Shown here piece after piece: positions 290 through 18,953 of a stretch of 23,977 nt of DNA. Source of the DNA: Nitrososphaerota archaeon (GTDB lineage Archaea; Thermoproteota; Nitrososphaeria; Nitrososphaerales; UBA57); NCBI GenBank assembly GCA_013378385.1, contig JACAFS010000012.1, positions 1-23,977 of the forward strand. Reading direction: 5' to 3'. A model generated the notes under the pieces. It worked only from the letters and a program-made list of their open reading frames with translations, was not told the DNA's origin and did no database searches. Within the stretch, counting starts at the first letter, position 1. Every line of letters starts with the position of its first letter. A program made the translations under genes and the position numbers.

Positions 290-1777
290 TTAACTCCTAA
301 TCTTTTTAATAAAATCTATTGTTGATTCTCTAATAAATGAATCTATACTCAAAACAATTATAGTATAAACTAATACAGAAATGAATCCTGGAGGTATGAT
401 ATAAATAATTATTGACCCAACTGAAGTCCCTGTTAAAGGAATTAATTCTTGATAAACATATAAAAATCCTGCCATTATTATTCCTGAAAAACTATATCTT
501 AATATTGATAACTTAGGAAAGTCGAACTGCATTACGCGTTTTGCTAATAGTATTTTATATATTGTAAATGGAATTGTTATCAATAACAATGTTATTGCCC
601 AATACATACTAAGCATCAATTCATTTTCAACGCCTTTTGACGTATACATTATTACTCCCAATATTGAGAAATATCCTGCATATTTCATTAAATCAATTAA
701 CGGCAGCCTTACTAACCAACTATTTCTCAATCTCTTAAACTGTAGATTGTTTATATTTTCGTCAATTTTTTCCAAACCCGTTAATATATTCCACATGAAA
801 TACTCTATTCCTTCAATTACTGCCACTATTGTCAAAATTCTTAAAACAAGTTTTGCTTTTACATATTGTTCACCCAAAATTCCCAACAGTGGTTCTGCCA
901 ACATCAATGCTCCAACAGCAAGTGGAATTACGACAAAACTCTGTAGTCTAAATGTCAATGTAATATCTTCATTTCTATTATCACGAATTAATTTTGGATA
1001 TAAAACACGCAAAAATTCTTCACTATAACGAACTATTAATGTAAATACTCTACTTGCTTGAAATATTCCGACAACTGTGGTTGAACCAAGAATTATTGCT
1101 ACAAGTATTGAATCAGAAATCGATAATCTTGAAACCGACATGTTCGATATTGGTATCCATGCTGCTTTATACCATTTTTTTATAGTAGAACTCTTAAACG
1201 AACCTCTTAATTTCGGTCTTATTATGTAGATAACAATAGCTAATTGTAAAAATTGCCCTAACGCTAATGATAATATCGCACCAATTAAACCAAGTTTTAG
1301 AATTGCTATTGTATAATAAGCACCAGATACTTTTCCAATTTCTAAAGCAATCGTTGCATATCCTAGATATTCCGGTTTATATGATCTTGCAACTGGCTTA
1401 ACCACCTCCCAAATACATAAAGCTGGAATTTGTATACTGTAAATCAATACATAAATCAATATTGCTTCTATTGACGAAGAGGCTGTCAGTGCAAGTACTA
1501 AGTATGCTATGACAAAAATTGGCACTGCAATAATTCCTGCCAATAAAGAGGTTCTTGCTACGTCTTGGCCTCTGGCAGAATATCTTAATGTCCAATAATT
1601 TAAAGGGGCTAACGGTATCAGCAATAATCCTACTGAACTTCCTAATGTTTGCCATAAACCAAATTCATCAACAGGAAGATTTCTTGTTACTAATGTAATG
1701 AAAATTAGTCCTGTAATTAATGTAGCAAACCGCGCAATTAGCTGAATAATTCCTGCATAAGCTATTCTTAATGTCAA
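290..1777 (-). CDS. Polytopic membrane protein, Wzx/MOP-superfamily polysaccharide/oligosaccharide flippase-like
   Basis: 495 aa and hydrophobic throughout, with roughly 12-14 predicted helices. The N-terminus (IIQLIARFATLITGLIFITLVTRNLPVDEFGLW) is typical of polysaccharide biosynthesis/flippase proteins. A TTG start is required because there is no nearby in-frame ATG. Confidence 0.6.
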   Translation of the reverse strand: MTLRIAYAGIIQLIARFATLITGLIFITLVTRNLPVDEFGLWQTLGSSVGLLLIPLAPLNYWTLRYSARGQDVARTSLLAGIIAVPIFVIAYLVLALTASSSIEAILIYVLIYSIQIPALCIWEVVKPVARSYKPEYLGYATIALEIGKVSGAYYTIAILKLGLIGAILSLALGQFLQLAIVIYIIRPKLRGSFKSSTIKKWYKAAWIPISNMSVSRLSISDSILVAIILGSTTVVGIFQASRVFTLIVRYSEEFLRVLYPKLIRDNRNEDITLTFRLQSFVVIPLAVGALMLAEPLLGILGEQYVKAKLVLRILTIVAVIEGIEYFMWNILTGLEKIDENINNLQFKRLRNSWLVRLPLIDLMKYAGYFSILGVIMYTSKGVENELMLSMYWAITLLLITIPFTIYKILLAKRVMQFDFPKLSILRYSFSGIIMAGFLYVYQELIPLTGTSVGSIIIYIIPPGFISVLVYTIIVLSIDSFIRESTIDFIKKIRS

Positions 1778-1835: not shown

Positions 1836-2105
1836 CTATTTTTTCCATAATATTATTTTATACTGTCCTGAACCTGATTTCCATATTCCATATTCTGAAA
1901 CATCGTTACTTACCGATTGAGGCACTGCTTTAGTTGCCATTACATGATCTGTTTGTATAACAACAATCTTCCCAGAATCAATTTTTTTAATTTCTTCTCT
2001 TGCAATAATCTGCGGATAAGGACATACCTCTCCTTCCATGTCTATTATTATTGCACTTTGTTCAATCTCTTTCATATCTTCGTCATTCACTTTTCTTTCT
2101 TCCAT
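1836..2105 (-). CDS. TusA/SirA/YedF-like sulfur-carrier protein (CPxP motif)
   Basis: 89 aa with the EGEVCPYPQ motif (CPxP active-site cysteine) and TusA-like length and layout. It starts 16 nt after the YeeE/YedE stop and is preceded by an AGGTGA Shine-Dalgarno-like box. Confidence 0.8.
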   Translation of the reverse strand: MEERKVNDEDMKEIEQSAIIIDMEGEVCPYPQIIAREEIKKIDSGKIVVIQTDHVMATKAVPQSVSNDVSEYGIWKSGSGQYKIILWKK

Positions 2106-2111
2106 TATATT

Positions 2112-2117
2112 TCACCT
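2112..2117 (-). promoter_or_regulatory. Shine-Dalgarno-like box (AGGTGA) 6 nt upstream of the TusA-like ATG
   Basis: The minus strand reads TGA TCATAGGTGAAATATA ATG. The box is complementary to the conserved 3' end of archaeal 16S rRNA. Confidence 0.45.
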
Positions 2118-2121
2118 ATGA

Positions 2122-3219
2122 TCAAACTGCACAACCTGACCTTCTAAACATCCAGTGAGTAGCAACATATACTCCTAATAATAGACCTAGTGATGTTATA
2201 AAACCTGCTACGGACAAAAATGCTAACCCACTAAATGTATTACTGATGTTACAACCTGGCGCCATTCTTGAACCGAAACCCATAACCAATCCACCAATTA
2301 CTGCATTTGGAATTCTTGATCTCTTTATTACTCTTATCTTAAAATCTCCGCTTAAATACGCTGAGATGAAAGCTCCTAGAATTAAACTTACAAATAATAT
2401 CATATCTAAGCTAATTGAAAATATACCATCACGAAATACAACACTATTCCAATAAATATTATTTTGAAGAGTTTCTATACCAAATATCTCACTATAAACT
2501 AAACCTGTCCATTTTGCCTGAGGTCCTGTTACACTTAATGTTCCCCAAACTACAAACCACAATGTCGCTAATACTCCCATTCCAACACCAACTAATTTTG
2601 TATCCCATTCTGCTTTGAGACTCTCTGATGAAATATTAGATATTTTTAGACCTTGGATTGTTTGATTTATAACTAATTTGTTTTTACTTCGTAAATAAAC
2701 CACTGCCGCACTTATCAATAATACTGGGACAATCGGCGAGAATAATTCTAAACTCGAAATAACACTATAACCATCAAAAATTTGTAATGGAACAAAGAAA
2801 TATGGTAAAAAGACTTCTGGAAATAGTGCAGCAAATGCTATGTATCCCACACACGCTGAAATCAATAACAACCAATAATGTATGTATCCTTCTCCCGCAC
2901 GATATAATGTACCTGATGCACATCCTCCACCGTAGACCATTCCTATTCCAAATACAAATCCTCCTATTATGTTAGAAAGACCATAATTCGAAACCCAAAA
3001 ATTAGAACTAGAAACTCCTAACACATATGCTATACTTGTGCCAAGCATCATCGTTACAATTCCAATAATTACTCCATTTAGCACTCTTGTATCTTTGAAC
3101 GCAATAAAATCTCTTAATGCACTAGTAAAACAAAAGCGTCCTTTTTGTAGAAGTATTCCAAATCCCAGTCCAATGAGTAAAGTTGCACCTAATGATAAAA
3201 TATTATTGTATTCTAACAT
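2122..3219 (-). CDS. YeeE/YedE-family membrane transporter (thiosulfate / sulfur- or selenium-compound permease)
   Basis: 365 aa polytopic protein with the three family signature cysteine motifs: RFCFTSA (C30), GGGCASGTLYRAGEG (C100) and APGCNISN (C323). It has the two-repeat architecture. Confidence 0.85.
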   Translation of the reverse strand: MLEYNNILSLGATLLIGLGFGILLQKGRFCFTSALRDFIAFKDTRVLNGVIIGIVTMMLGTSIAYVLGVSSSNFWVSNYGLSNIIGGFVFGIGMVYGGGCASGTLYRAGEGYIHYWLLLISACVGYIAFAALFPEVFLPYFFVPLQIFDGYSVISSLELFSPIVPVLLISAAVVYLRSKNKLVINQTIQGLKISNISSESLKAEWDTKLVGVGMGVLATLWFVVWGTLSVTGPQAKWTGLVYSEIFGIETLQNNIYWNSVVFRDGIFSISLDMILFVSLILGAFISAYLSGDFKIRVIKRSRIPNAVIGGLVMGFGSRMAPGCNISNTFSGLAFLSVAGFITSLGLLLGVYVATHWMFRRSGCAV

Positions 3220-3222
3220 GCT

Positions 3223-4293
3223 CTAACCTCCACAATTGAAATTCGCACTAACAATTTTTGCATCATCTTTTGCCACATTTAATCCCGTATTACTATTCAT
3301 TATGTTGTAAAATTGCACATTGTGAGATCCATTTCCTGTTTCTATTGTTGCAATAATTTCAAACTTATTCAAATCAATTACAGATACAGTTGCATCGTTA
3401 CTATTACTGATATATCCATAGTTTCCATTGGGCTCAATATCGATATTATGAGGAAAATCTCCTGTTTGAAGCTCTTTAATTATTTCTCCCTTCATGTTTA
3501 TGATCAATACCTTATCTTCTTCAGGCAACGTGACAATAACGTTTTCCCCATCTGCAGTTAATGCTATTCCATGTGGATCTGATTCTAAGTTTATGCTATT
3601 CTTTACTTCTTCATTATCTATGAAGAAAAGCTTTGCAGGTCTTATTGCTCCAACAATAATTCTTTCATCTTTATCTGACACTATCATTAAAGGGTCTGCA
3701 TCGATCTTAATGTTATTTACTACCTCTAATTCTCTGAAATCTACAATGGATATTGATTGTGATTCTGTATTTGTAACTGCAACAGAATCTGATAATAATG
3801 CTACGTGATGCGGCTGTTCTTGCACTTCAATTCTTGATATTATTTTATCTGTTGTCGTATTAATCATTACCAAGGAATTCGAATCTCTACTTATTAAGAA
3901 AAATATATCTCCTTTGTCATCAAATATTCCTGCATGTTGAAGATTTGGACCAACTCTGACTCTTGATTGTATTTCTAATGATTGCGGATCTAATGTTAAC
4001 AATTCAGATTCACCATCATGAATAAGATATAATTTGTTATTCTTTTCATTATAATGTGCACCATATTGACCAGAATCGATTTCAATATTGATATTTGTTA
4101 AACTAATAAGAAGATAATTATCTATTACAGTTGCTGTTTTACCAATAGTATTGAATACCACTGCTTGATATTGTTCAATTTCTATATCATTATTCGAATG
4201 ATAAACAAACGTGCCACCAATCAAAAAACCTATTGTTAGCGCTGTTATTATTGCGCTAACTAATAGCAGATTCTGATTGTTTTGTTCTGACAA
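3223..4293 (-). CDS. Membrane-anchored YVTN-type beta-propeller repeat protein
   Basis: 356 aa with one N-terminal TM/signal anchor (LLLVSAIITALTIGFLIGGTFVY). Repeated ~40-residue units match the YVTN propeller pattern, e.g. PHNIDIEPNGNYGYISNSNDATVSVIDLNKFEIIATIETG. TTG start. Its stop lies 3 nt before the YeeE start. Confidence 0.7.
   Translation of the reverse strand: MSEQNNQNLLLVSAIITALTIGFLIGGTFVYHSNNDIEIEQYQAVVFNTIGKTATVIDNYLLISLTNINIEIDSGQYGAHYNEKNNKLYLIHDGESELLTLDPQSLEIQSRVRVGPNLQHAGIFDDKGDIFFLISRDSNSLVMINTTTDKIISRIEVQEQPHHVALLSDSVAVTNTESQSISIVDFRELEVVNNIKIDADPLMIVSDKDERIIVGAIRPAKLFFIDNEEVKNSINLESDPHGIALTADGENVIVTLPEEDKVLIINMKGEIIKELQTGDFPHNIDIEPNGNYGYISNSNDATVSVIDLNKFEIIATIETGNGSHNVQFYNIMNSNTGLNVAKDDAKIVSANFNCGG
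3226..3231 (-). promoter_or_regulatory. Shine-Dalgarno-like box (GGAGGT) for the YeeE/YedE gene, embedded in the last codons of the upstream gene
   Basis: The minus strand reads TGT GGA GGT TAG AGC ATG. GGAGGT lies 6 nt before the ATG and simultaneously encodes the C-terminal Gly-Gly of the propeller protein. Confidence 0.45.
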
Positions 4294-4302
4294 CTATTCC
4301 AC

Positions 4303-5496
4303 TTAGTAATTGTTTGTATTTATTGGAACAATTTTTGATGGCGAATAAGGTAATTTCAGACTGTCTACTTTCTTAAACGAGCCTACCTCGAACACATCAA
4401 CTGAACTGTCTCCTGGATTTGGTATATATGCAAGAGTACTGTCAGGACTAAATGCTGGATGTCCAGTATTTTCGATTTCTATCTTCGTGACTTCAGTCAA
4501 ACTTTCGACTTCATATACTATTGACGCTGGTCTAGTTCTAACTACACAGTATTTTCCATCTGGCGTAAACTCACTAGTACGTGGACCTGATTCTAATGGA
4601 AATTCTTTTACTATTTCCTTAGCCTGAATATCCCACACCATTTCAATTGGATCTAAATTCTTGAATCCACCTGCATTCGACCAATTTCCTGCTGAATTTA
4701 CTTCGATAAATGCAACATCATTGTTAGGCGAAATTGTTATCATGCTTGCACCATAGTCAGCGTAATCTACAGCTAAATGTTCTTCAATTGTAAATGTCTT
4801 TGTATCTACTACTGAAATCAAACTCTCTAATTGATTTACAAGCCACAATTTACCATCAGGTGCTATTGCAACGTCACAACAGAATTTTGGAACTGGTAAT
4901 ACATCGACTACTTCTCCCTTGAGAAGATCAATTTTATGAATTTCTCCTGGATCAATGTCATTATATGGAATTTCAAATTCATCTCTAGATGCATTGAACT
5001 TTTCTGAATCATATTTGTCTGCAATATATCCATTTAACATATATCCGTATTTTCCTTCTTCATCTGTTTCTCCTAATCTTATTCTCCATCTTCCTTCTAA
5101 TGGAACATCGTGAACTAATTCATTAGTAGTTGGATTTACTGCAATTGTAGAACCTATTTGACCAGGTTTTCTTACTAGTCCCCATACGTTTCCATTTGCA
5201 TCCGGATAATGGTTACACCAGTCTATACTTCCTGCTTCAGCGATCCAAGTTGGACCTGATGATGCTAAGACTTTTCCACGAGCTAAGTCAATTGTTGCAA
5301 TTGATCCTTCAGCACCAAAGACATAGCCTAAATGTCCTCTTCCTTTAAGTTCTTCTTTTACCTCATCGAGTTCACTTGTTACTGTGCCTACTTGAGAATT
5401 AGCAGACAGATAACCTGCTCCTCCAATTCCTAGACCGACAGCTGCTCCCCCGATATATTTGATAAAATCTCTTCGATTTACGTTTGTATCTGACAT
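4303..5496 (-). CDS. Tat-signal secreted beta-propeller protein (YVTN/lactonase-like repeats)
   Basis: The N-terminus MSDTNVNRRDFIKYIGGAAVGLGIGGAGYLSA carries a twin-arginine motif (RRxFIK) plus an h-region. It contains propeller-like repeats (IAPDGKLWLVNQLESLISVVDTKT, FTPDGKYCVVRT, FSPDSTLAYIPNPGDSSVDVFEV) and a vicinal Cys pair, C206-C207. Its stop lies 9 nt before the next gene. Confidence 0.65.
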   Translation of the reverse strand: MSDTNVNRRDFIKYIGGAAVGLGIGGAGYLSANSQVGTVTSELDEVKEELKGRGHLGYVFGAEGSIATIDLARGKVLASSGPTWIAEAGSIDWCNHYPDANGNVWGLVRKPGQIGSTIAVNPTTNELVHDVPLEGRWRIRLGETDEEGKYGYMLNGYIADKYDSEKFNASRDEFEIPYNDIDPGEIHKIDLLKGEVVDVLPVPKFCCDVAIAPDGKLWLVNQLESLISVVDTKTFTIEEHLAVDYADYGASMITISPNNDVAFIEVNSAGNWSNAGGFKNLDPIEMVWDIQAKEIVKEFPLESGPRTSEFTPDGKYCVVRTRPASIVYEVESLTEVTKIEIENTGHPAFSPDSTLAYIPNPGDSSVDVFEVGSFKKVDSLKLPYSPSKIVPINTNNY

Positions 5497-5564
5497 TTTA
5501 TATCGTTATTTTATAATGCCGTTATATTTATATACTTTTCGACGTCCGATTAATTGTTTCATAC
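5497..5564. promoter_or_regulatory. Divergent archaeal promoter region with two TATA-like boxes in a 16-nt-spaced imperfect direct repeat
   Basis: This 68-bp AT-rich spacer lies between the divergent ATGs at 5496 (-) and 5565 (+). It contains CGTTATTTTATAA (5504-5516) and CGTTATATTTATA (5520-5532). Which box serves which strand cannot be resolved from sequence. Confidence 0.4.
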
Positions 5565-6995
5565 ATGAGTACAAAACAGGAATTTTGGGACAATGTCTCC
5601 AAATATAGAGAAATGGGAATGGATCCACTTAGATGGGTGGCAGGATGTGCTGTCAAAGTAGATCTTGATACTGTCGTTTATCCTAGCTTGCACAATCTAA
5701 AACCTAGCCTTAAACAAATGGGAATCTCCTTAGGAGAGCGCGTTGACGCCGATATATTTCCATTAACTGAAAATGGTCCTGTAATAACTCGTAGAATCTA
5801 TAATCCTTCTAATCCTGAAATTGACCTTGACGATTTAAAAAAGATCAATCCAAAACGTGCAATCTCTTTGTTACAAGTCTTTCAGAAAAATGCCGAGAAG
5901 CAAGAAAAATTTCAAGCATTGTTAAACACTCTTTATACATCAATATCTAAATCTGACGTTCATTTTGCTGTTGGAAAAGGACATTCAATTATTACCGGTT
6001 TTCCAGACGCTGAATTTGCATTATTTGATTTTATTTCATATGAAGAAGGACGATCTGATGGATGGTGCCTCTCTAATAATGATACTATTCAAATTATTGA
6101 TCCAACCGCCGATCCATCTTCTGAACAACAAACTAATGTTGCTATATCTAACTCCTTAAACGATTTAATTTCCCTTGGCTGTTACGAAGAACTCAAAGTT
6201 TCTCCAGTTGTCGATGCGCCAAATGAAGAAATTCAAAATAATATCTCTAAAAATATGAAAACCTTTTCTAATAAATACGGTATGGAATTACTTCCTTCAG
6301 AATCACCACAACGTGGAAAGCTATTGATTGGCGCTACACTTTTTGGTACACTGAGAAAGGAACCTCCTACTAAACTCGATCTTCTAGATACTGGAATGCA
6401 AATCTTGGTTACTAGACCTTTCGGAGATTTAGCTCCAATCAATGTATTCCTATCATGTGTTGCCGACGAAACATTTCTTCAGGAATTGGAAAAAACTGGC
6501 TATTCCCTTAATGACGTCCAAAATGCTAAAGATTCTGTTATTAGTACTATGAATCAACCTAATCTGAAGGTTGCAGAGATCATCAACAAGTATTTGCCTG
6601 AATTTGGCAGTTCTTTTGACATTAACGAACATGTTCTAGCTACTGGTGATCTATCTGGTCCTGGTATTATGATATTCAAAGAACATGCTAATAATGCAGG
6701 TGTTGACATATCTCTTGATAATCTTCCTTTGCGTTATCCTGAATTCGTTAAATATGCTACTGAAAACTTTCTTATGGATAATGCTACTGCAGGCACTAAT
6801 GGAGCTGTAGCGGTAATAGCTTCTCCTAATATCATATCAAATATTAGCTCTGAACTTAAATCAACAGGTTACGATCCACATATTATTGGTACTATTCTAG
6901 GAAAAGGAAACGGAACTGTAAAAATCTCGAAAGACGTAAATGACATGATTGCGTCAGATATATTATTAAATCAGTTAACAATAGGAGATGAATGA
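5565..6995 (+). CDS. SelD-like protein (selenophosphate synthetase-like, PurM/AIR-synthase superfamily), enlarged, Cys-type
   Basis: 476 aa. Hand alignment to E. coli SelD gives four matches. AGCAVKVD aligns to GCGCKISP, placing Cys28 and Lys31 at the Cys17 and Lys20 positions. GERVDADIF aligns to ETRDDAAVY. NVAISNSLNDLISLG aligns to RIAATNAISDIFAMG. ILVTRPFGDL aligns to LFLTKPLGIG, and TGDLSGPGIMIF aligns to MTDVTGFGLLGH. The Cys codon is TGT at 5646-5648. Confidence 0.7.
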   Translation: MSTKQEFWDNVSKYREMGMDPLRWVAGCAVKVDLDTVVYPSLHNLKPSLKQMGISLGERVDADIFPLTENGPVITRRIYNPSNPEIDLDDLKKINPKRAISLLQVFQKNAEKQEKFQALLNTLYTSISKSDVHFAVGKGHSIITGFPDAEFALFDFISYEEGRSDGWCLSNNDTIQIIDPTADPSSEQQTNVAISNSLNDLISLGCYEELKVSPVVDAPNEEIQNNISKNMKTFSNKYGMELLPSESPQRGKLLIGATLFGTLRKEPPTKLDLLDTGMQILVTRPFGDLAPINVFLSCVADETFLQELEKTGYSLNDVQNAKDSVISTMNQPNLKVAEIINKYLPEFGSSFDINEHVLATGDLSGPGIMIFKEHANNAGVDISLDNLPLRYPEFVKYATENFLMDNATAGTNGAVAVIASPNIISNISSELKSTGYDPHIIGTILGKGNGTVKISKDVNDMIASDILLNQLTIGDE

Positions 6996-7237
6996 TTATG
7001 CAACAACAAAGTAAAAAACTCGATCTTGTCGGACAAGTATGTCCTTGGCCAGTGATTAACACTGTCAAAGAACTTAAAAAATTAGATGTTGGAGAAGTAT
7101 TAGAAGTTACAGTTGATCACTTACCTTCTACAATAAACATTCCTTCAGCTGTTAAAAAAGATGGACATGAAGTTCTTAGCTCAGAAGAGACTGATGAAGG
7201 CGTCTTCAAAATTTTCATAAAAAATAACAATAATTAA
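6992..7237 (+). CDS. TusA/SirA-like sulfur-carrier protein
   Basis: 81 aa with LDLVGQVCPWPV (CPxP). The ATG at 6992 overlaps the SelD-like stop (ATGA). An alternative ATG at 6998 sits 8 nt after a GGAGAT SD-like box (6984-6989). Confidence 0.8.
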   Translation: MIMQQQSKKLDLVGQVCPWPVINTVKELKKLDVGEVLEVTVDHLPSTINIPSAVKKDGHEVLSSEETDEGVFKIFIKNNNN

Positions 7238-7245
7238 TTGTTTAA

Positions 7246-7488
7246 TTGGTGAATCTCTTTTTGAAAATTGATCAATCACTTGATGTTAAAGGTCTTGTAT
7301 GCCCGATTCCTGTTCTCAAAACTAAACAATTTATTTCTAAAATGGAAAGTGGGCAAGTCCTGGAAATTTCAGCGACTGATCCTGCATCTAAAGAAGATAT
7401 TCCTGCATGGGCTAATCGTGTGGGTCATGAAATTATTGAAATTAAAGAAGAAGATAATCACTTTAAATTTATTTTGAGGAAAAAATAA
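7246..7488 (+). CDS. TusA/SirA-like sulfur-carrier protein (second tandem copy)
   Basis: LDVKGLVCPIPVLKT (CPxP) plus a conserved C-terminal half (ATDPASKEDIPAWANRVGHEIIE). There is no in-frame ATG before the motif. Candidate starts are TTG 7246, GTG 7249, or TTG 7261, which lies 8 nt after GGTGA at 7248-7252. Confidence 0.8.
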   Translation: MVNLFLKIDQSLDVKGLVCPIPVLKTKQFISKMESGQVLEISATDPASKEDIPAWANRVGHEIIEIKEEDNHFKFILRKK

Positions 7489-8291
7489 TGTCTATTTTAT
7501 TGGATTCTACGTGGCTGAAAGAAAATCTTGACGACTCTCACTTTGTAGTTCTTGATATTCGTTCTCCTCGTGAATACAATTCTGCTCATATTCCTAATTC
7601 TCGATTAGTTCCTTATGCTAAAATCTTGAGTTTCACTGATTCTACATCGTATTTTGATTTGGCTTCTAAAGAGCAAATAGAAGAATTATTGAGCATTCTT
7701 GGTATTAATAACGAATCCACACTTGTAATATGCGGTGATAGAGGTGGAGCTACTGCATCACGCTTATTTTGGTCACTTGCATACTATGGACTTTCAGTAC
7801 AATTTCTAGATATTAGTTTCTCTAAATGGATGTCATTAGGATATCCTGTAACTGATAAAATCGAAACAATTGAAAATTCAAACTTTGTTATTACTCAATC
7901 TCAACTTGACTTCAAAGTTGATCATGAATACGTACTATCTAAAATCAAAGATTCTAATTCTATATTGGTTGATACTCGCAGTCCTGAAGAATTTAATGGA
8001 ATTGTTGCAGCAGGACCTAAATCTGGTAGGATTCCAACCTCAAAAAACTTTCCCTGGGAAGTAGCAGTAGGAGACGATGGATATATATTTAAAAACATAG
8101 AACATCTAAATAGTCTCTTTGAAGAATCTGGAATTACTAAAGATAAAGAAATAATTTGTTATTGTCAAGTTGGAGAAAGAGCATCTCATACTTTTGTAGC
8201 ATTACAAATATGTGGATATAATAATGTTAAAATTTACGACCGATCATTTGCTGATTGGAGTACTAGAGACAATCTTCCTATTGAAAGTTAA
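7488..8291 (+). CDS. Tandem-domain rhodanese (thiosulfate/3-mercaptopyruvate sulfurtransferase family)
   Basis: 267 aa with two rhodanese domains. The C-terminal active-site loop is CQVGERAS (Cys226, TGT 8163-8165). The N-terminal domain loop CGDRGGAT also keeps a Cys (C82, TGC 7731-7733). TAATG overlap with the upstream gene, and a GAGGA box 7 nt upstream. Confidence 0.85.
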   Translation: MSILLDSTWLKENLDDSHFVVLDIRSPREYNSAHIPNSRLVPYAKILSFTDSTSYFDLASKEQIEELLSILGINNESTLVICGDRGGATASRLFWSLAYYGLSVQFLDISFSKWMSLGYPVTDKIETIENSNFVITQSQLDFKVDHEYVLSKIKDSNSILVDTRSPEEFNGIVAAGPKSGRIPTSKNFPWEVAVGDDGYIFKNIEHLNSLFEESGITKDKEIICYCQVGERASHTFVALQICGYNNVKIYDRSFADWSTRDNLPIES

Positions 8292-8296
8292 TCTAA

Positions 8297-8566
8297 TTAA
8301 AATTCATTTGTATTTGAACTAGAATTCATAACAGTTTTTGTAGATATATTTTTCTTGCCTGACGATGTCTTAGATTTTTTCTTTGCTGATACTGCTTTTT
8401 CTTTTTCTAATACAGCACTGAATAATACCACTGTATTTGAACGTGTTGAACCAATACTTACTGAACTACCATAATGAATTATCTCCCATCCATCTTCAGA
8501 TAATTTATTTAATTCTTCTTCAAATGCTTTTTTAGATTGCTCTGCAACAATTTTAAACTGTCTCAT
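8297..8566 (-). CDS. Small hypothetical protein with Lys/Ser-rich tail (possibly DUF4177-like)
   Basis: 89 aa. The N-terminal ~55 aa (KIVAEQSKKAFEEELNKLSEDGWEIIHYG) resemble small DUF4177-type domains, followed by a low-complexity K/S tail. A TATA-like ATTATAT lies upstream on the minus strand. Confidence 0.35.
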   Translation of the reverse strand: MRQFKIVAEQSKKAFEEELNKLSEDGWEIIHYGSSVSIGSTRSNTVVLFSAVLEKEKAVSAKKKSKTSSGKKNISTKTVMNSSSNTNEF

Positions 8567-8620: not shown

Positions 8621-9571
8621 TTAGCTAATATTTTCAGGAAGAATTGTTGTCACTCCAGGGAAATATATTGATAAGAAATACCAAATTAGATAACCTACCA
8701 ATAACAGTACTCCACTTTGTATTGTTCCCATTACAGTGTTTCCCATCGCAGGAATTAATTCCATGATTTTTTCATACTCTTTCTGTAATATGGCATTTGC
8801 AACTCTGAATTTTGGAATAGTAGCCAGTGCAATTATTGTTGTTGGTGGTATTGTGTATGTAACTACTCCAAGTATCAATATGACAAAACCCGCATTAACT
8901 ATGTACTTGTATATTCCTGCGGCACGTTTCTTACCTAATCTTGCAACTAGATGAAATCTTCCTTTTGATTTATCAGCATCTGTATCTGGAAATTGATTAA
9001 TGTACAGTATTCCTGTAGTCATTAATCCTACTATTGATCCAACAACCATTGCTTCCGTACTGATCAAACCACCACTTTGAATGTAATATACACCTGTGAA
9101 TAATAATGGACCGAAATTCAAAAATACAAAAACTTCTCCTAACCCAATTTTTGATAGCACTGGTGAATATGCAACCGATGTAATTATTGCAATTGAAATT
9201 AATGCAATTAATAATGGTGGAAAATTAAATATATAAAGAAAATATAATCCTATCAAAGATCCGATTGCAAGTAGTATTATTCCTCCAATTAAAACACTTT
9301 TTGGAGTTAAAAGATTTTCTGGAAGCACTCTACTTCCGCCACTAAATGGCGTTGGCGTGGTAGCTGTATCTATTCCACTCTTAAAATCAAAATAATCATT
9401 TAAGACATTAACACTTGCATGTATACATACAATTCCAATTAGTGTTAATATGCCATATACTAGATTGAAATACCCATCTAGTAAAGCGACAGTTATTCCA
9501 AGTGGCACAAAAATTGCTGGAAGACTGAGAAATGGAATTCTTAATTCTTTTGCCCAGACTTCTAGTTTCAA
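8621..9571 (-). CDS. UbiA-family aromatic prenyltransferase, MenA-like (1,4-dihydroxy-2-naphthoate polyprenyltransferase-like)
   Basis: 316 aa polytopic protein. NVLNDYFDFKSGID matches the N(D)xxDxxxD motif in its MenA-type form (NDYxDxxxGxD), with a second Asp-rich region at QFPDTDADKSKG. TTG start. Confidence 0.75.
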   Translation of the reverse strand: MKLEVWAKELRIPFLSLPAIFVPLGITVALLDGYFNLVYGILTLIGIVCIHASVNVLNDYFDFKSGIDTATTPTPFSGGSRVLPENLLTPKSVLIGGIILLAIGSLIGLYFLYIFNFPPLLIALISIAIITSVAYSPVLSKIGLGEVFVFLNFGPLLFTGVYYIQSGGLISTEAMVVGSIVGLMTTGILYINQFPDTDADKSKGRFHLVARLGKKRAAGIYKYIVNAGFVILILGVVTYTIPPTTIIALATIPKFRVANAILQKEYEKIMELIPAMGNTVMGTIQSGVLLLVGYLIWYFLSIYFPGVTTILPENIS

Positions 9572-9590
9572 TTAATCACCTTATTTTTTT

Positions 9591-9926
9591 CTAGATATTC
9601 TCAACAAACTCTGTTTTTCCCATAAAGCCAATTTGCTGACCATCTTGCATCAATGGTTTAACATTTAATCTTCCTTTGAAATGTGATCCGTCTTTTCGTA
9701 CTAATTCTACTACGTCCTCCCATTCGCCTTTCTCTGAAGCGGTTTGGAGCAATAACGGGACTAAAGTCTGTAAGTTTGCTTCGATATGAAACATGCCTAC
9801 ATTTCCTTTGCCTACTAATTCATCTCTCGTATAACCGAATAATTCTTCAGCACCTTTGCCGAATTCGGTTATAGTTCCTTTTAAATCACATGCTATTCCA
9901 GATACTGGAAATTTCTCTTCACTCAT
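9591..9926 (-). CDS. Stand-alone PAS-domain protein
   Basis: About 111 aa with a PAS-like core (DLKGTITEFGKGAEELFGYTRDELVGKGNVGMFH ... VRKDGSHFKGRLNVKPL). The ATG at 9926 is preferred; an upstream GTG at 9935 is also possible. Its stop lies 19 nt before the MenA-like start. Confidence 0.6.
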   Translation of the reverse strand: MSEEKFPVSGIACDLKGTITEFGKGAEELFGYTRDELVGKGNVGMFHIEANLQTLVPLLLQTASEKGEWEDVVELVRKDGSHFKGRLNVKPLMQDGQQIGFMGKTEFVENI

Positions 9927-9993
9927 AATTACCACTCCACCATGGTAATAAATAAACCTTGTTAGATAAATAACCTGAAACCCTGATAATACT

Positions 9994-11145
9994 GTGATAT
10001 TTTATACATTATTGGAAATTATTATTCCGATACTGGCATTATCTTGGTTTCTTATTCTTCTTTTCCGAATATTCAGTTTTTTCAATATAGATAAATTAAG
10101 TTTAGACGAAGACCCTCTGCATACTCCGTTAATCTCAATTATCATTCCCGCTAGAAATGAAAAATTAAATATCCTTCGTTGTTTAGAATCCATACAGAAA
10201 CAAACTTATAGTAATTTTGAGGTAATTGTCGTAGACGATAATTCTACTGACGATACATACCATATTGCCAATCAGTTTTGTCAGAATGATGATAGATTCT
10301 CGCTTTTAAAATTAAACAATGATGATAAAACTTGGGTCGGAAAAAACCGCGCATGTCATGAAGGATCTCAAATATCCAATGGTTCATTATTATTATTTAT
10401 CGACGCTGATACGGAACACCAAACTAATTCAATCAAATCTTCTTTATCCTATATGCAAAATAATAATCTTGATGTATTCACTATGTTTCCTCAATTAACG
10501 TGTTCTGACTTTTGGGGGAAACTTATTTTACCTATTTTGATTTCTATGATTAATATATTATATTCTCCTTTATTATTAAACTCAAAAAGTACATCTGTCG
10601 CTTATCTTGTTGGCGGTTTTATCTTAATTAAAAAACAGATATATGATGATATTGGCGGTCATGAAAGTGTAAAATCATCCTTTGTTGAAGATAAATCTCT
10701 TGGCGAACGTCTTAAAAAATCTGGTTATAATCTAAAACTGATACGTTCTGGTGATTCTGTTAAAACTTATTCTAATACTGGCTTTACCAATAATATTGAT
10801 GCTATACAACGTGCAACATCTGCATCATTTATAGAATCTCATTTGTTTCTTGGATTAATTTCTATCTTTCTCGCGTTTATAGGCCTTGTACTTCCTTATT
10901 TTCTAATCTTTTTTGTAACTTCATTGGAAATTTTATATTCTATCCTGATTCTTCTCACTATAACTTTTATGGGTATATCGTATCTTATCGAATTTGTTGA
11001 TATTAATCATTCTAAGTTGTATGTACTCTTCCAACCAATTACTAATCTGATATTCTTTTACTGTATGATTTTTTCAGTCTTTAAAATATATTCAAATTCT
11101 TCATTTGTTTGGCGTGAACGTGCTTATACAAAAAAACAATTATAG
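9994..11145 (+). CDS. Integral-membrane family-2 glycosyltransferase
   Basis: ISIIIPARNEKLNILRCLESIQKQTYSNFEVIVVDDNSTDDT is a classic GT2 N-terminal signature, and LLFIDADT provides the DxD. One N-terminal TM helix and several C-terminal TM helices. GTG start. Confidence 0.8.
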   Translation: MIFYTLLEIIIPILALSWFLILLFRIFSFFNIDKLSLDEDPLHTPLISIIIPARNEKLNILRCLESIQKQTYSNFEVIVVDDNSTDDTYHIANQFCQNDDRFSLLKLNNDDKTWVGKNRACHEGSQISNGSLLLFIDADTEHQTNSIKSSLSYMQNNNLDVFTMFPQLTCSDFWGKLILPILISMINILYSPLLLNSKSTSVAYLVGGFILIKKQIYDDIGGHESVKSSFVEDKSLGERLKKSGYNLKLIRSGDSVKTYSNTGFTNNIDAIQRATSASFIESHLFLGLISIFLAFIGLVLPYFLIFFVTSLEILYSILILLTITFMGISYLIEFVDINHSKLYVLFQPITNLIFFYCMIFSVFKIYSNSSFVWRERAYTKKQL

Positions 11146-11847: not shown

Positions 11848-12723
11848 ATGGATAAATCCAAGTCTTTGCGTAAACTTCTCGAAACAAACAAACCTATATT
11901 TGTACCTGGAGTATATGACGCATTAAGTGCAAAAATCGCACAACAAGTGGGATTCGATGCAGTTTTTCATACAGGATATGGAACTGCCGCAACTTTACTT
12001 GGCGTTCCTGACATTGGTCTTGTAAGTTTTTCGGAAATGAAAGAAAGAGTTTCTAATATCTGTAATTCTATTGATATTCCTGTAATTGCTGATGCAGATA
12101 CTGGTTATGGTAATTCTCTGAATACTATGAGGACTGTCAAAGATTATATTCGTTCAGGCGCAGCAGGACTTATTCTTGAAGACCAAGTATGGCCAAAAAA
12201 ATGCGGACATATGGAAGGAAAATTAGTCATTCCCATAGATGAGATGGAATCAAAAATAATTGCAGCTGCACAAAGTCGAAAAGAAGAAAAATCAGATTTG
12301 GTGATTGTAGGACGTACTGATAGTTTAGCAGTCGAAGGAGTAGATATGGCTATTGATAGAGTTAAACGTTATAGTAAAGCTGGTGCAGATCTTTTATTTA
12401 TAGAAGCTCCTAACAAAGTCGACGAACTAGAAATTATTGCAAAACAAGTGAAACTTCCATTATTATTAAACCAATTAGAAGGAGGACGCACTCCTTTAAT
12501 TTCTATGAAAAAGGCAAAAAAAATTGGTTTTAAAATTATCTTATTTCCTTTGACATCTCTTTACGCATCTACTAAGGCCGTATTTGATTCTTTGTCTTAT
12601 CTAAAGAAACACCAAACCTCTCTTGGTATTGAAGATCAATTAATTACCTTTGATAAATTCAATCAACTCGTTAATCACGATGATTTGATTAAATTAGAAA
12701 AGAAATTATCTAATAGAAAATAA
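11848..12723 (+). CDS. Isocitrate lyase/PEP mutase-family enzyme (methylisocitrate lyase / carboxyvinyl-carboxyphosphonate phosphorylmutase-like)
   Basis: 291 aa with PGVYDALSAKIAQQVGFDAVFHTGYG, DADTGYGN and LEDQVWPKKCGHMEGK, the family K(K/R)CGH loop. Confidence 0.8.
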   Translation: MDKSKSLRKLLETNKPIFVPGVYDALSAKIAQQVGFDAVFHTGYGTAATLLGVPDIGLVSFSEMKERVSNICNSIDIPVIADADTGYGNSLNTMRTVKDYIRSGAAGLILEDQVWPKKCGHMEGKLVIPIDEMESKIIAAAQSRKEEKSDLVIVGRTDSLAVEGVDMAIDRVKRYSKAGADLLFIEAPNKVDELEIIAKQVKLPLLLNQLEGGRTPLISMKKAKKIGFKIILFPLTSLYASTKAVFDSLSYLKKHQTSLGIEDQLITFDKFNQLVNHDDLIKLEKKLSNRK

Positions 12724-13872
12724 TTATTTTATATATTCTTGAATCTTCTCTTTACAAATTTCTATTCCATTGTATTTCGAAGTTAGGCTTCTAAAATTAT
12801 TTGTAGCCTTTAAAAATTTACCATCGTTTAATACTGATTCAACATTTTCAACTAATGAATAATCATCTTCTTCCATATGTATTCCTAAATTTAATTCATC
12901 AATTCTCTTTGCATTTTGTATCTGTTCGCTTTGTCCTTTTATTGGTACTATTATTGATGGTTTTCCTAAAGATACTGCATTTCCTATACTCGAATGACCT
13001 CCTCGTATTATTACACAGTCGGATATATCGAACATCTCTCTCCAAGGACACCATTCAAATTCAGTCCAATACTCTTTCTTTTTTGGTATAGATTCTCCAT
13101 TTGGATCGCCTTTGGAAATTATAATATTATACTCGTCTTTTATTGATTCAATCTGTTCAATGATTCTATTATAAGCACTTAATCTTGATTGTTTTGGTCC
13201 GCTTATTTGCACGTATATCGTACTCTTTTTTCCATCTATCTTCAACTCATTAATTATTGATTTCTTTCTTTTTTCATCTAATTCTTTGGCTAGAAATCCG
13301 ATATATCTTAATTTAGTTTTTATTGAGTCTATTCCTTCTATATTTTCCTTACATATTGTATAAGGAGGCGGCAAATCTGGAATGAATATCTCGTCTGCAT
13401 AATTCCAGAAATGTGCTAATAGCTGTCCATTGATTTTCTCTAATCTTCTTTTACGTGTATTCCTGATTTCTACTAATAATTTGATTTGATTAAGAATTAC
13501 AATTGATGGTATTCCCATCTTATTTGCACACAAAACCGGAGATAGCCTTGAATCACTAAATACTATATTTGGTTTATATTTTTTCAAGAATCGTAATTCT
13601 TCTTCTAGATGATATAAAAAAGTTCCTGCTAATACTGGAAGTCTAATTATTGTTCTTGTTGTTGATACTGTTCCATCATCTTTCCAAGATATATCTAATG
13701 GACGAATTTTTTTACATTGAAATTTATTTGCCACTAAAAATTCATAACCATCTTTGAATGAACTGAATGTATATGTAAAGTCTTTATTCAATGAACTTGC
13801 AATTAATGACGCTCTATTTGCATGTCCTACTCCTGATCCATATGTGGGAAAATATACCTTCTTTTTCAACAC
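12724..13872 (-). CDS. GT-B fold glycosyltransferase (GT28/GT1, MurG/MGT-like)
   Basis: 382 aa. The N-terminal GSGVGHANR glycine-rich loop and the C-terminal IIRGGHSSIGNAVSLGKPSIIVPIKGQSEQIQNA resemble the nucleotide-sugar binding domain of MurG/UDP-glycosyltransferases. GTG or TTG start. Confidence 0.6.
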   Translation of the reverse strand: MLKKKVYFPTYGSGVGHANRASLIASSLNKDFTYTFSSFKDGYEFLVANKFQCKKIRPLDISWKDDGTVSTTRTIIRLPVLAGTFLYHLEEELRFLKKYKPNIVFSDSRLSPVLCANKMGIPSIVILNQIKLLVEIRNTRKRRLEKINGQLLAHFWNYADEIFIPDLPPPYTICKENIEGIDSIKTKLRYIGFLAKELDEKRKKSIINELKIDGKKSTIYVQISGPKQSRLSAYNRIIEQIESIKDEYNIIISKGDPNGESIPKKKEYWTEFEWCPWREMFDISDCVIIRGGHSSIGNAVSLGKPSIIVPIKGQSEQIQNAKRIDELNLGIHMEEDDYSLVENVESVLNDGKFLKATNNFRSLTSKYNGIEICKEKIQEYIK

Positions 13873-13890
13873 GTTATCGCCTCAAGGTTA

Positions 13891-15156
13891 TCAAAAGTCA
13901 ACTTCTTTCTCTAACACTCTGCCAGTTCCAGGACTAGCAATTATCTTTTTTCCATCAAATACTACTTGACCATTAATTATCGTCTTTGCAACTACTCCTA
14001 AAATCTGATTACCATCAAATGGCGAATTCTTTGCTTTAGACAAAAAATTATTAACATTTATTGTATTCATCTTATTCTCATTAATCACTATCAAATCTGC
14101 ATTATACCCTTCTTTAATCTGACCAATATTTCTTAATCCAAATCTTTTGATTGGATTATCTACCAATATCTCATAGATTCTCTGTAGCGTAATCTTATTT
14201 TTCATATACAAATCAATCATCAAAGGCAGAGTTATTTCTAGACCTGGAAAACCTGGCTTTCCTTCATCTTTATCTCTTAATGAATGTGGCGCATGATCAG
14301 TTCCTATAATATCAATTCCCCCATCCACCACGCTGTTAAATATTGTTTCTTGATTTTCTTTATCCCTTAAAGGAGGCTCACAGTAATGTTTTTCACTATT
14401 TGTCTTCTCTGTATTCAGAATCATATGATGTGGCGTTGCTTCACATGATATATCTACAATCGACTTGTTATTCTTAATCGCTTCAATACCTTCTTTTGTT
14501 GAAACATGTACAAAATGTATTTTACAATTTGTTTGTTTTGCTAGTTTTATGATTCTATTTATGGCATGAACTTCTGATTCGGTAGTATGGTTGTTATTTT
14601 GATCAAATAATTGATGATCTTCTGCATGCACTGCTAATATTGAATCACATTCACTTATTCTATTCATAATTCTAATCAAATTCACATCTGATAAATCCTG
14701 TTCCTTGAATGGCTTATGTAAATATATCTTGAATGCAATTGTATTTGATAATCTTAATTGATTTACATCCTCAGATCTGATAGGCGAACTATAGAATCCA
14801 ACGTTACAAAAAATTCTATTTTTCGCATTATTCTGTCGTTTTTTTAATTCTTTTACGTTAATTATGGGTGGATTTGTATTCGGCATATCTAATACAGTTG
14901 TAAATCCTCCTGCCACTGCTGCCTGCGTTCCTGAAATAAAATCTTCTTTATATGAAAATTCTGAATCTCTTAAATGCGAATGCACATCTACGCATCCAGG
15001 AAATACAATGTTGTTCTCTACATCTATTGAAACATCCGCTTCAGGAATGTTGTCCTGATTTCCCAATTTTGATATTTTTCCATCTTTAATTGATATTGTG
15101 ATATTTTCTAGATTACTGTTTATCCACACTCTTCCATTTATTATATTTAGATTCAT
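13891..15156 (-). CDS. pyrC: Dihydroorotase
   Basis: 421 aa with PGCVDVHSHLRD (metal-binding HxH), AVHAED, HFVHVST and GTDHAPH, in the canonical order of amidohydrolase/DHOase motifs. Confidence 0.85.
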   Translation of the reverse strand: MNLNIINGRVWINSNLENITISIKDGKISKLGNQDNIPEADVSIDVENNIVFPGCVDVHSHLRDSEFSYKEDFISGTQAAVAGGFTTVLDMPNTNPPIINVKELKKRQNNAKNRIFCNVGFYSSPIRSEDVNQLRLSNTIAFKIYLHKPFKEQDLSDVNLIRIMNRISECDSILAVHAEDHQLFDQNNNHTTESEVHAINRIIKLAKQTNCKIHFVHVSTKEGIEAIKNNKSIVDISCEATPHHMILNTEKTNSEKHYCEPPLRDKENQETIFNSVVDGGIDIIGTDHAPHSLRDKDEGKPGFPGLEITLPLMIDLYMKNKITLQRIYEILVDNPIKRFGLRNIGQIKEGYNADLIVINENKMNTINVNNFLSKAKNSPFDGNQILGVVAKTIINGQVVFDGKKIIASPGTGRVLEKEVDF

Positions 15157-18865: not shown

Positions 18866-18953
18866 CATTTATTGACTTCTGTCTGCAATTCCTTGTATTC
18901 AATATCAATCCTTTTTAATACATGGATTGTTGATAAACTTCGGTAATTTCAAA

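Follow-up and report, generated by a model that had tools for sequence, protein, structure and literature searches.

The SelD-like family was defined computationally by Li et al. in 2014 (BMC Genomics 15:908; PMC4210487) as a separate branch of the PurM superfamily whose nearest relative is SelD. Its members retain the Asp and Asn ligands of SelD and a conserved cysteine that matches the SelD Sec/Cys, and their genes neighbour SirA/TusA, DsrE-like and rhodanese genes, with acylphosphatase fusions in Thermoproteales. A thiophosphate product was proposed for the family, with the proviso that a selenium role cannot be fully excluded. The family was reported in Sulfolobales and Thermoproteales only, and as absent from Desulfurococcales and bacteria; the text of the paper makes no mention of YeeE, thiosulfate, propellers or Thaumarchaeota. 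A 2026 review still describes the function of the family as speculative. Here, a member of this family is described from a stretch of 23,977 nucleotides of a Nitrososphaerota archaeon (contig JACAFS010000012.1; "the window" below is this whole stretch), where it lies in a locus of eight genes that also encodes two extracytoplasmic beta-propellers, a YeeE/YedE-family permease, three TusA-like carriers and a rhodanese. The locus is interpreted as a system for the capture, import, relay and ATP-dependent activation of reduced sulfur for assimilation in heterotrophic marine Thaumarchaeota (HMT, also termed HMN), an interpretation with about an even chance of being right.

The window protein shares with the family of Li et al. 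a full-length match, the Cys-x-x-Lys loop, the Asp/Asn residues and the link to SirA/TusA and rhodanese, and the ATP-dependent, thiophosphate-type chemistry proposed there is the chemistry considered here. It differs in its setting, the mesophilic open-ocean Thaumarchaeota, and in that the window lacks the acylphosphatase partner. Three other described systems resemble parts of the locus. SelD-YedE-YedF follows the same logic, with a permease of the YeeE/YedE family, a TusA-fold carrier and a PurM-superfamily enzyme having an N-terminal Cys/Sec-x-x-Lys loop. However, the window enzyme fails the SelD models and has about 110 extra residues, the scores of YeeE and the TusA proteins stay below the cutoffs for YedE and YedF, no selenium-pathway genes lie nearby, and the family context is one of sulfur genes. 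In YeeE-YeeD (TsuA-TsuB), three cysteines of YeeE and the CPxP cysteine of YeeD, the cytoplasmic "fourth cysteine", relay thiosulfate, with persulfide and thiosulfonate adducts forming on YeeD (PMC11073785). Here too, a PF04143 permease with three motif cysteines adjoins a small CPxP protein of the TusA family, but the window proteins fall below the TsuA and TsuB cutoffs, and the two Cys-bearing extracytoplasmic propellers that precede the window YeeE have no counterpart in the characterised system. Finally, in the rhodanese-TusA-DsrE cascades (sHdr/Dsr), a cytoplasmic rhodanese and several TusA carriers imply a persulfide relay, as they do here; in contrast, the window has no sHdr, Dsr or DsrE, and its relay would end at an ATP-dependent PurM-superfamily enzyme rather than at an oxidoreductase.

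The combination of a SelD-like enzyme with TusA and a thiophosphate-type product is thus the published 2014 hypothesis. A preliminary description of the window, made from its letters without database searches, had offered the same kind of product as one of two readings; this agrees with Li et al. and so is not new. New here are the HMT host with its physiological rationale, a wider phyletic range, a quantified set of partners that includes YeeE, and the Cys-bearing two-propeller module. The literature yielded no experimental study of the SelD-like family and no work linking a SelD homolog with YeeE or propellers, the hits being the 2014 paper and two reviews. Nor did it yield any characterised pathway that joins all of these parts, as the preliminary description had supposed.

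An ORF (open reading frame) scan of the window recovers the eight genes with the coordinates, strands, junctions and divergent spacer that the preliminary description had listed. The leftward operon, on the minus strand, runs from a Tat-signal (twin-arginine translocation) 7-bladed beta-propeller (4303..5496; 397 aa; TIGR01409) through a membrane-anchored YVTN beta-propeller (3223..4293; 356 aa; TIGR02276, PF02239, PF21783) and the YeeE/YedE-family membrane permease (2122..3219; 365 aa; PF04143) to TusA_L (1836..2105; 89 aa; PF01206). Read from the sequence, the gaps between these genes are 9, 3 and 16 nt. The rightward operon, on the plus strand, consists of the SelD-like protein of the PurM superfamily (5565..6995; 476 aa; NF038049), TusA_R1 (6992..7237; 81 aa; PF01206), TusA_R2 (7246..7488; 80 aa; PF01206; TTG start) and a cytoplasmic tandem rhodanese (7488..8291; 267 aa; PF00581), joined by a 4-nt ATGA overlap, an 8-nt gap and a 1-nt overlap. 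Profile scans confirm the earlier identification of the TusA proteins, YeeE, the tandem rhodanese and both propellers. Shine-Dalgarno (SD)-like boxes, which had been ascribed to the internal genes in general, are clear ahead of four of the six: YeeE (GGAGGT), TusA_L (AGGTGA), TusA_R1 (AGGAG) and rhodanese (GAGGA). The YVTN propeller gene has a weak box only, and TusA_R2 has no clear one.

Between the operons lies an intergenic region of 68 bp (5497..5564, no strand), presumed to be a bidirectional archaeal promoter. In six HMT relatives the spacer measures 67-71 nt; its core, ATTTTATAATGCCGTTATATTTATATA, hardly varies, including where the spacer bases on either side of it differ. Within the core are two TATA-like elements, TTTTATAA at 5509-5516 and TTTATATA at 5527-5534. 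The conserved core would fit a shared promoter of the presumed type. A σ70 scan found 34 sites against 34.4 expected, i.e., no enrichment by a model that is irrelevant for an archaeon, and of the three terminator-like sites found, none is at the end of either operon. The full layout recurs in seven species-level genome representatives, in which the SelD-like protein is 79-97% identical, and the exact SelD-like protein is present on 13 ocean metagenome contigs, including some from Tara Oceans samples. The recurrence of the full layout in these representatives, and of the exact SelD-like protein on ocean contigs, exceeds what chance would give; conservation of gene order was among the checks that the preliminary description had proposed.

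The SelD-like protein matches NF038049, the NCBIfam family "SelD-related putative sulfur metabolism protein", with 547.4 bits (cutoff 250; E = 2.1e-164), residues 6-472 lying on model positions 2-464/465. On the true-SelD equivalog model NF010705/PRK14105 it scores 32.8 bits against a cutoff of 291. Because the SelD models fail and a separate curated family is matched, the protein is not SelD; by sequence, it belongs to a separate SelD-like family that is nearest to SelD. The resemblance to SelD seen in the preliminary description thus holds for the fold and the loop and does not extend to SelD membership. The protein also does not fall with PurM, ThiL or HypE, the clades that had been named as the alternative placement; SelD is nearest by both profile and fold. 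No Pfam match was obtained, including to AIRS or AIRS_C at E <= 0.01, and a single-sequence phmmer search of the PDB gave nothing meaningful; placement came solely from the family profile and the fold search. The family profile run against PDB sequences finds human SPS1 first (1.6e-7), followed by HypE (1.9e-4) and PurM (0.16).

Multiple residues are invariant in 73 sequences of the family: G27, C28, K31, D33, R59, D61, D63, N171, N172, T174, D179, N196, D200, D362, G365, G367, T408 and the run T411-N-G413, together with a family-specific motif, G137-K-G-H140. C28 and K31 form an N-terminal Cys-x-x-Lys loop like that of SelD at the motif level; the loop is equated with that of SelD by motif identity and by Li et al., while profile methods leave the segment unaligned. 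In the alignment, N196, D200 and D362 fall on ANVLSD and TDITGFG, two motifs of SelD, consistent with conserved Asp/Asn ligands for ATP and Mg. The assignment of D61/D63 and D173 as ligands is by motif only, and Li et al. report all of them as conserved. An hhalign comparison with an approximate sequence of E. coli SelD aligned residues 183-390 only.

The AlphaFold2 (AF2) model of the protein has a predicted local distance difference test (pLDDT) value of 92.4, with low confidence at the Cys28 loop, as would be expected if the loop is mobile. The best 14 Foldseek matches in the PDB are SelD structures without exception (E = 1.9e-15 to 6.6e-13); HypE, ThiL and PurM come after them. The query-normalised TM-score (TMq) is about 0.5 against SelD structures because the protein has extra residues. 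These, about 110 in number (roughly 65-170), lie between the first and second Asp motifs and form an extra alpha/beta subdomain in the model. The insert holds the invariant GKGHS motif as well as R76 and R98, and it has no counterpart in SelD, HypE, ThiL or PurM. It could provide an anion site or a surface on which a carrier docks. Together, the conserved residues and the fold lead us to predict that the protein is an ATP-dependent activator of carrier-delivered sulfur, with C28 and K31 as the candidates for its catalytic loop.

To place the protein among its relatives, one genome per GTDB species was scanned, yielding 117 SelD-like loci, of which the best 80 were analysed by calling ORFs and searching them with the window proteins and with de novo clusters. 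The archaeal carriers include marine and groundwater Thaumarchaeota, Halobacteria, Methanobacteriota, Hydrothermarchaeales metagenome-assembled genomes (MAGs), Desulfurococcales, Acidilobales, Pyrodictiaceae, Thermofilaceae and Sulfolobales. Bacterial carriers are four Bipolaricaulota/Acetothermia MAGs and one MAG labelled Acidobacteriota, MAG taxonomy being open to error. The family therefore spans far beyond the hyperthermophiles described in 2014 and includes mesophiles and Bipolaricaulota. The window, from a mesophilic marine HMT, is itself outside the earlier restriction to hyperthermophilic Sulfolobales and Thermoproteales, and the wider range extends the family without affecting membership. 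In the MAG labelled Acidobacteriota (L012, 9455-13033), an ArsR-type regulator gene is followed by genes for the SelD-like protein (57% identical to that of the window), TusA, rhodanese, acylphosphatase and TusA; this is either a bacterial acquisition or a mislabelled 406-kb contig.

Partner genes are frequent at these loci, with at least one within 3 kb in 71 of the 80. TusA is the commonest, lying no more than 100 nt from the SelD-like gene in 49/80. Acylphosphatase comes second (38/80 in all, fused or within 100 nt in 37 of them). Within 3 kb of the SelD-like gene are also found YeeE (34/80), rhodanese (24/80) and a propeller (10/80), and the commonest operon is YeeE-TusA-(SelD-like)-acylphosphatase. 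A PLP (pyridoxal phosphate) enzyme of the CysK/CBS type is present in 10 loci, about 87 nt upstream of the SelD-like gene; this neighbour and ThiF (6 loci) hint at cysteine or sulfur-carrier chemistry. Other less frequent neighbours are an FCSD/SQR-like flavoprotein (5 loci), a HIT protein (5), DSP-PTPase (4), a metallophosphatase (7) and DsrE, which a single-sequence search detects in three loci and de novo clustering as a four-locus cluster. The idea of capture, import, relay and activation put forward in the preliminary description fits these neighbourhoods, with their adjacent TusA and the recurrent YeeE-TusA-(SelD-like) operon.

The recurrent acylphosphatase and the other phosphohydrolases suggest a labile phosphorylated product. 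They can also be read in another way, in which the enzyme performs a different PurM-superfamily reaction on a TusA-bound adduct, either a HypE-like, ATP-dependent dehydration or ligation, for which acylphosphatase would supply or trim an acyl-phosphate as HypF does in the HypF/HypE system, or an ATP-driven release of sulfide from a carrier persulfide. Acylphosphatase is fused to the SelD-like protein or encoded 0-62 nt downstream in many loci, DSP-PTPase, HIT protein and metallophosphatase recur nearby, HypE is the second-nearest family by profile and fold, and the GKGHS-bearing insert is without a SelD counterpart. However, the position of the reactive cysteine is that of SelD, in an N-terminal Cys-x-x-Lys loop, and not the C-terminal one of HypE; YrdC- and Kae1-type carbamoyl-transfer domains are absent from the recurrent neighbours, and the window has no acylphosphatase. 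Acylphosphatase partnership is a variable feature of the family, not a defining one. Such chemistry appears improbable.

The relay proteins of the window are recognisable by their cysteines. YeeE matches PF04143 over its full length (187 bits) and has the three motif cysteines C30 (GRFC30F), C100 (GGGC100ASG) and C323 (APGC323N), of which C30 and C100 are invariant in 31/31 aligned YeeE sequences. With an adjoining TusA-like protein, it has the make-up of a YeeE with a YeeD partner. Its scores are below the TsuA cutoffs (113.7 vs 645 for NF041049; 138.4 vs 400 for NF052577) and below that of the YedE/FdhT model NF033796 (165.8 vs 350). All three TusA copies have the PF01206 fold and carry a cysteine in CP[YWI]P. 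TusA_L (38.3 bits) has an N-terminal extension and its CPxP cysteine, C28, in EGEVC28PYP; its gene lies 16 nt downstream of yeeE, and by position it is the YeeD-like partner of YeeE. Through its ATGA overlap with the SelD-like gene, TusA_R1 (75.5 bits, cysteine C17) is translationally coupled to it. In other loci, the TusA that adjoins the SelD-like gene nearly always matches TusA_R1 best, which by sequence makes TusA_R1 the conserved partner type across the family. TusA_R2 (89.6 bits, cysteine C19) is the copy closest to canonical TusA, scoring 69 bits on the TusA model NF001423, below its cutoff of 78. The rhodanese matches PF00581 in two stretches (109 bits) and has an active-site loop, C226-QVGER, in its C-terminal domain; its best NCBIfam likeness is to 3-mercaptopyruvate sulfurtransferase (100 bits, below the cutoff of 250).

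The first propeller passes the Tat-signal model TIGR01409 with 19.0 bits (cutoff 16.7). Its one invariant cysteine, C207, directly precedes an aspartate that is also invariant, D208, in the sequence FCCDVAIAPDG. Its AF2 model has an overall pLDDT of 78.6, with 85-95 in the propeller body. Foldseek matches in the PDB are the YVTN S-layer protein, QHNDH-beta, NirF, lactonases, hydrazine synthase-beta, thiocyanate dehydrogenase and AztD. The family is narrow: beyond 22 close homologs, there are six proteins at 33-36% identity. The second propeller scores 48.5 bits on the YVTN model TIGR02276, above the cutoff of 27.85, and has a hydrophobic anchor at its N-terminus. Its sole cysteine, C354, is in the C-terminal tail ...SANFNCGG, and relatives with identities as low as 27-36% keep the terminus ANF[NT]CGG. 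Among 1.84 billion representative proteins, an exhaustive HMMER search finds only about five single-domain relatives. Another protein with the SANFNCGG tail (P0197, 335 aa) combines an N-terminus like that of an NAD-dependent epimerase with the last blades of the propeller, and is probably a chimera of assembly or gene calling. Two candidate identities were dropped: selenium-binding protein/methanethiol oxidase, for which the propellers have no such Pfam match, and a role in PQQ catabolism, for which TIGR03866 gives 81 bits vs a cutoff of 287. The ped cluster of Pseudomonas is merely a loose parallel to the propeller module.

The tail of the YVTN propeller also has a second function at the DNA level. 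Its Cys-Gly-Gly codons (TGT GGA GGT TAG, window 3223-3240) form the GGAGGT SD box of yeeE, which begins 3 nt past the propeller stop, and the GGNGG dual coding is also present at two other loci (L081, L083). A GGNGG string is always retained in the Gly-Gly codons, whereas the codons of the Asn-Phe-x-Cys residues show synonymous changes that preserve the amino acids. In SoxY, the C-terminal arm has the motif GGCGG. Like the SoxYZ carrier, whose cysteine sits on a C-terminal "swinging arm" (Sauve et al. 2007, cited after PMC12997753), the YVTN propeller is extracytoplasmic and has a cysteine two residues from its C-terminus, followed by Gly-Gly. Unlike SoxY, it is a 7-bladed propeller, its Gly-Gly codons overlap an SD box, and no sox genes are in the window. 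The likeness is a resemblance only, and the protein is not placed with SoxY.

The six distant Tat propellers lie in an organism of 52% GC that repeats four genes of the window: the Tat propeller, the membrane-anchored propeller, YeeE and a TusA with a long N-terminus. At one of its loci (L081), YeeE is 51% and TusA_L 44% identical to the window proteins. There (9260-10875), the Tat propeller gene is followed by genes for a CcdA/DsbD_TM transporter and a membrane-anchored, CxxC thioredoxin-like protein (FWTYSCINC). These thiol-disulfide neighbours suggest that extracytoplasmic cysteines are kept reduced. C207-D208, the lone C354 and these neighbours support extracytoplasmic thiol chemistry. The leftward operon is a separable module with two Cys-bearing extracytoplasmic propellers.

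Whether this module and the rightward one belong to a single process is judged from how they occur elsewhere. In three Bipolaricaulota loci, a Tat-signal propeller gene directly follows the SelD-like gene; these propellers have a related PCD..SPDG motif and Cys-rich C-termini. At two of the loci (L049, L077), genes for the SelD-like protein, the Tat propeller, rhodanese, YeeE and TusA form one operon. The L049 rhodanese (13055-14023) has a twin-arginine signal of its own (STLSRRDLLK); judging by that signal, sulfur transfer may start outside the cytoplasm there. The two modules have been joined independently in two very distant lineages, which is the best evidence for joint function. If they were instead independent neighbours, the import module would supply sulfur for general use, the SelD-like protein, TusA and rhodanese would serve an unrelated cytoplasmic task, and the shared spacer would be incidental. 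This is consistent with the groundwater Thaumarchaeota, in which the rightward module is alone within 10 kb (L008-L011): L008, L010 and L011 have rhodanese-TusA and (SelD-like)-TusA and no YeeE or propeller, L010 having full 10-kb flanks. It is also consistent with L081 and L083, whose contigs carry the propeller-YeeE-TusA module and no SelD-like gene. However, YeeE directly adjoins TusA-(SelD-like) in about 30 crenarchaeal loci, Bipolaricaulota have united the parts on their own, and the core of the divergent spacer is conserved in seven HMT species. Mere neighbourhood thus seems quite unlikely.

In the proposed pathway of reduced-sulfur assimilation, the Tat-exported propeller and the membrane-anchored propeller would bind or process an external sulfur species at the cell surface, most likely thiosulfate or sulfane sulfur, and pass sulfur to YeeE. 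At the cytoplasmic face of YeeE, the YeeD-like TusA_L would take over the sulfur. The rhodanese and TusA_R1/TusA_R2 would relay it to the SelD-like enzyme in the form of a cysteine persulfide or thiosulfonate; there, TusA_R1 would hand it to Cys28 on the mobile Cys28-x-x-Lys31 loop and ATP would be spent on its activation. If the reaction parallels the synthesis of selenophosphate, it would yield thiophosphate or a phosphorylated persulfide that stays bound to the enzyme. This would feed sulfur assimilation, to cysteine or cofactor sulfur, in an organism reported to be without sulfite reductase. By homology to characterised systems, the YeeE-to-YeeD step would relay thiosulfate, and the same kind of homology suggests the exchange of sulfane sulfur between rhodanese and TusA.

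Several observations weigh against this pathway. The propeller matches in the PDB are generic 7-bladed propellers that indicate no function, and the Gly-Gly of the YVTN tail doubles as an SD box. YeeE fails both the TsuA and the YedE/FdhT equivalogs, with its best partial score on YedE/FdhT. The modules also occur apart, as at L008-L011, L081 and L083. Acylphosphatase is absent from the window (six-frame hmmsearch, E <= 10) and from L001-L011, and the marine version of the system may work differently without it. The window encodes no downstream acceptor. Thiophosphate as a metabolite is a hypothesis by analogy, and the lack of sulfite reductase in HMT is taken from published statements. In its fullest form, the proposal would be a complete and unrecognised sulfur-assimilation route, in which propeller cysteines, one of them on a C-terminal Cys-Gly-Gly arm, pass sulfur through YeeE and TusA to a SelD-like enzyme that would be the first biological thiophosphate synthetase and the main sulfur source of HMT lacking sulfite reductase; this fullest form is unlikely.

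The other reading in the preliminary description was an orphan selenium trait, in which YeeE would be a YedE-type importer, the TusA proteins would be YedF-like, and the SelD-like enzyme would make selenophosphate for a selenium-dependent product. The architecture does parallel the YedE-YedF-SelD association known from comparative genomics (PMC5322559), YeeE, TusA_L and TusA_R1 have their best NCBIfam scores, all sub-threshold, on the YedE/FdhT and YedF models, the SelD-type loop is invariant, and Li et al. left room for a selenium role. The score on the true SelD model, however, falls far below the cutoff, as noted above, and the Sulfolobales and Thermoproteales in which Li et al. found the family have no known selenium trait. 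The recurrent neighbours are sulfur genes (DsrE, the FCSD/SQR-like flavoprotein, the CysK-like PLP enzyme, ThiF and rhodanese), and the 24-kb window contains no tRNA-Sec, no Rfam element and none of selA/selB, ybbB, yqeB/yqeC, senA/senB or any other selenium-pathway gene. A selenium trait is therefore disfavoured and very doubtful. Highly improbable is a dissimilatory or protective use, in which reduced sulfur would be imported for oxidation as an energy supplement or toxic sulfane sulfur would be buffered: relays of SoxT (YeeE-like), TusA, rhodanese and DsrE feed sHdr in sulfur oxidisers (PMC11094781; PMC11582611), and an SQR-like flavoprotein and DsrE are near the SelD-like gene in some Sulfolobales loci, but hdr, dsr, sox and sqr genes are all absent from the 24-kb window, energy pathways of this kind are described as missing in HMT, and an ATP-consuming step suits assimilation better than energy gain.

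Assimilation of reduced sulfur is also the use that suits the host. The preliminary description had taken the DNA as thaumarchaeon-like, and this is borne out, the host being a heterotrophic, pSL12-like marine thaumarchaeon rather than an ammonia oxidiser of the Nitrosopumilus type. The CTP synthase of the window is 83-99% identical solely to uncultured marine sequences; no named Thaumarchaeota entry exceeds 68% identity, and the top 120 matches include no protein of cultured Nitrosopumilus. A Nitrosopumilus-type host was rejected on this search and on the genomes of the HMT literature that carry the full cluster: SAT139 (L007), called an HMN genome (PMC13374868); ASW2_bin45 (L006), a pSL12-like MAG, one of two from Reji and Francis; and "Isolate ATL" (L004), which matches HMT_ATL of Aylward and Santoro. 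HMN genomes have a mean GC of 32.6% and sizes of about 0.6-1.0 Mb. Sulfite reductase and sulfonate transport are reported to be missing in HMN, and their proteomes to be poor in Cys and Met (PMC13374868). The physiological rationale for the locus comes from this reported lack of sulfite reductase and from the retention of a 6.5-kb cluster in so small a genome (~0.6-1.0 Mb). Three HMT genome papers make no mention of YeeE, TusA, rhodanese, thiosulfate or selenium, and in one HMT supplementary table the ortholog groups of YeeE and TusA are entered as "function unknown".

Around the cluster lie housekeeping genes, which encode a RadA/B-like protein, MetK, PdxS/T and CTP synthase. The S-adenosylmethionine synthetase (18927-20048, plus strand) has the three MetK domains PF00438, PF02772 and PF02773. 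Three-domain MetK is usual in bacteria and eukaryotes, whereas most archaea use a different type; the gene may have arrived by horizontal transfer. At 11848-12723 (plus strand) is a protein of the PEP (phosphoenolpyruvate)-mutase/isocitrate-lyase superfamily (PF13714, 166 bits), syntenic in HMT relatives, which may have a role in phosphonate or methylisocitrate metabolism. A 58-nt gap separates TusA_L from the next gene downstream on its strand, which encodes a 495-aa protein (290-1777, minus strand) with many hydrophobic membrane-like segments and no Pfam match; this protein could be a flippase or a transporter. Convergent to the rhodanese gene is an 89-aa ORF (8297-8566, minus strand) with a Lys/Ser-rich tail and no Pfam family, which is kept in all seven HMT relatives and on metagenome contigs.

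If the SelD-like family makes thiophosphate or a phosphorylated persulfide, this would be new sulfur biochemistry parallel to that of selenophosphate. The mesophilic archaeal and bacterial members of the family may be easier to express. Its usual partners, namely TusA, YeeE, acylphosphatase and rhodanese, are the proteins to bring together in an assay, and the extracytoplasmic two-propeller Cys module is an undescribed candidate component. For the organism, the bearing is on how sulfur is obtained. SAR11 depends on reduced sulfur. The HMT are abundant in the dark ocean and have genomes of less than 1 Mb; in them, the conserved 6.5-kb locus would explain the supply of sulfur and would predict a dependence on reduced sulfur.

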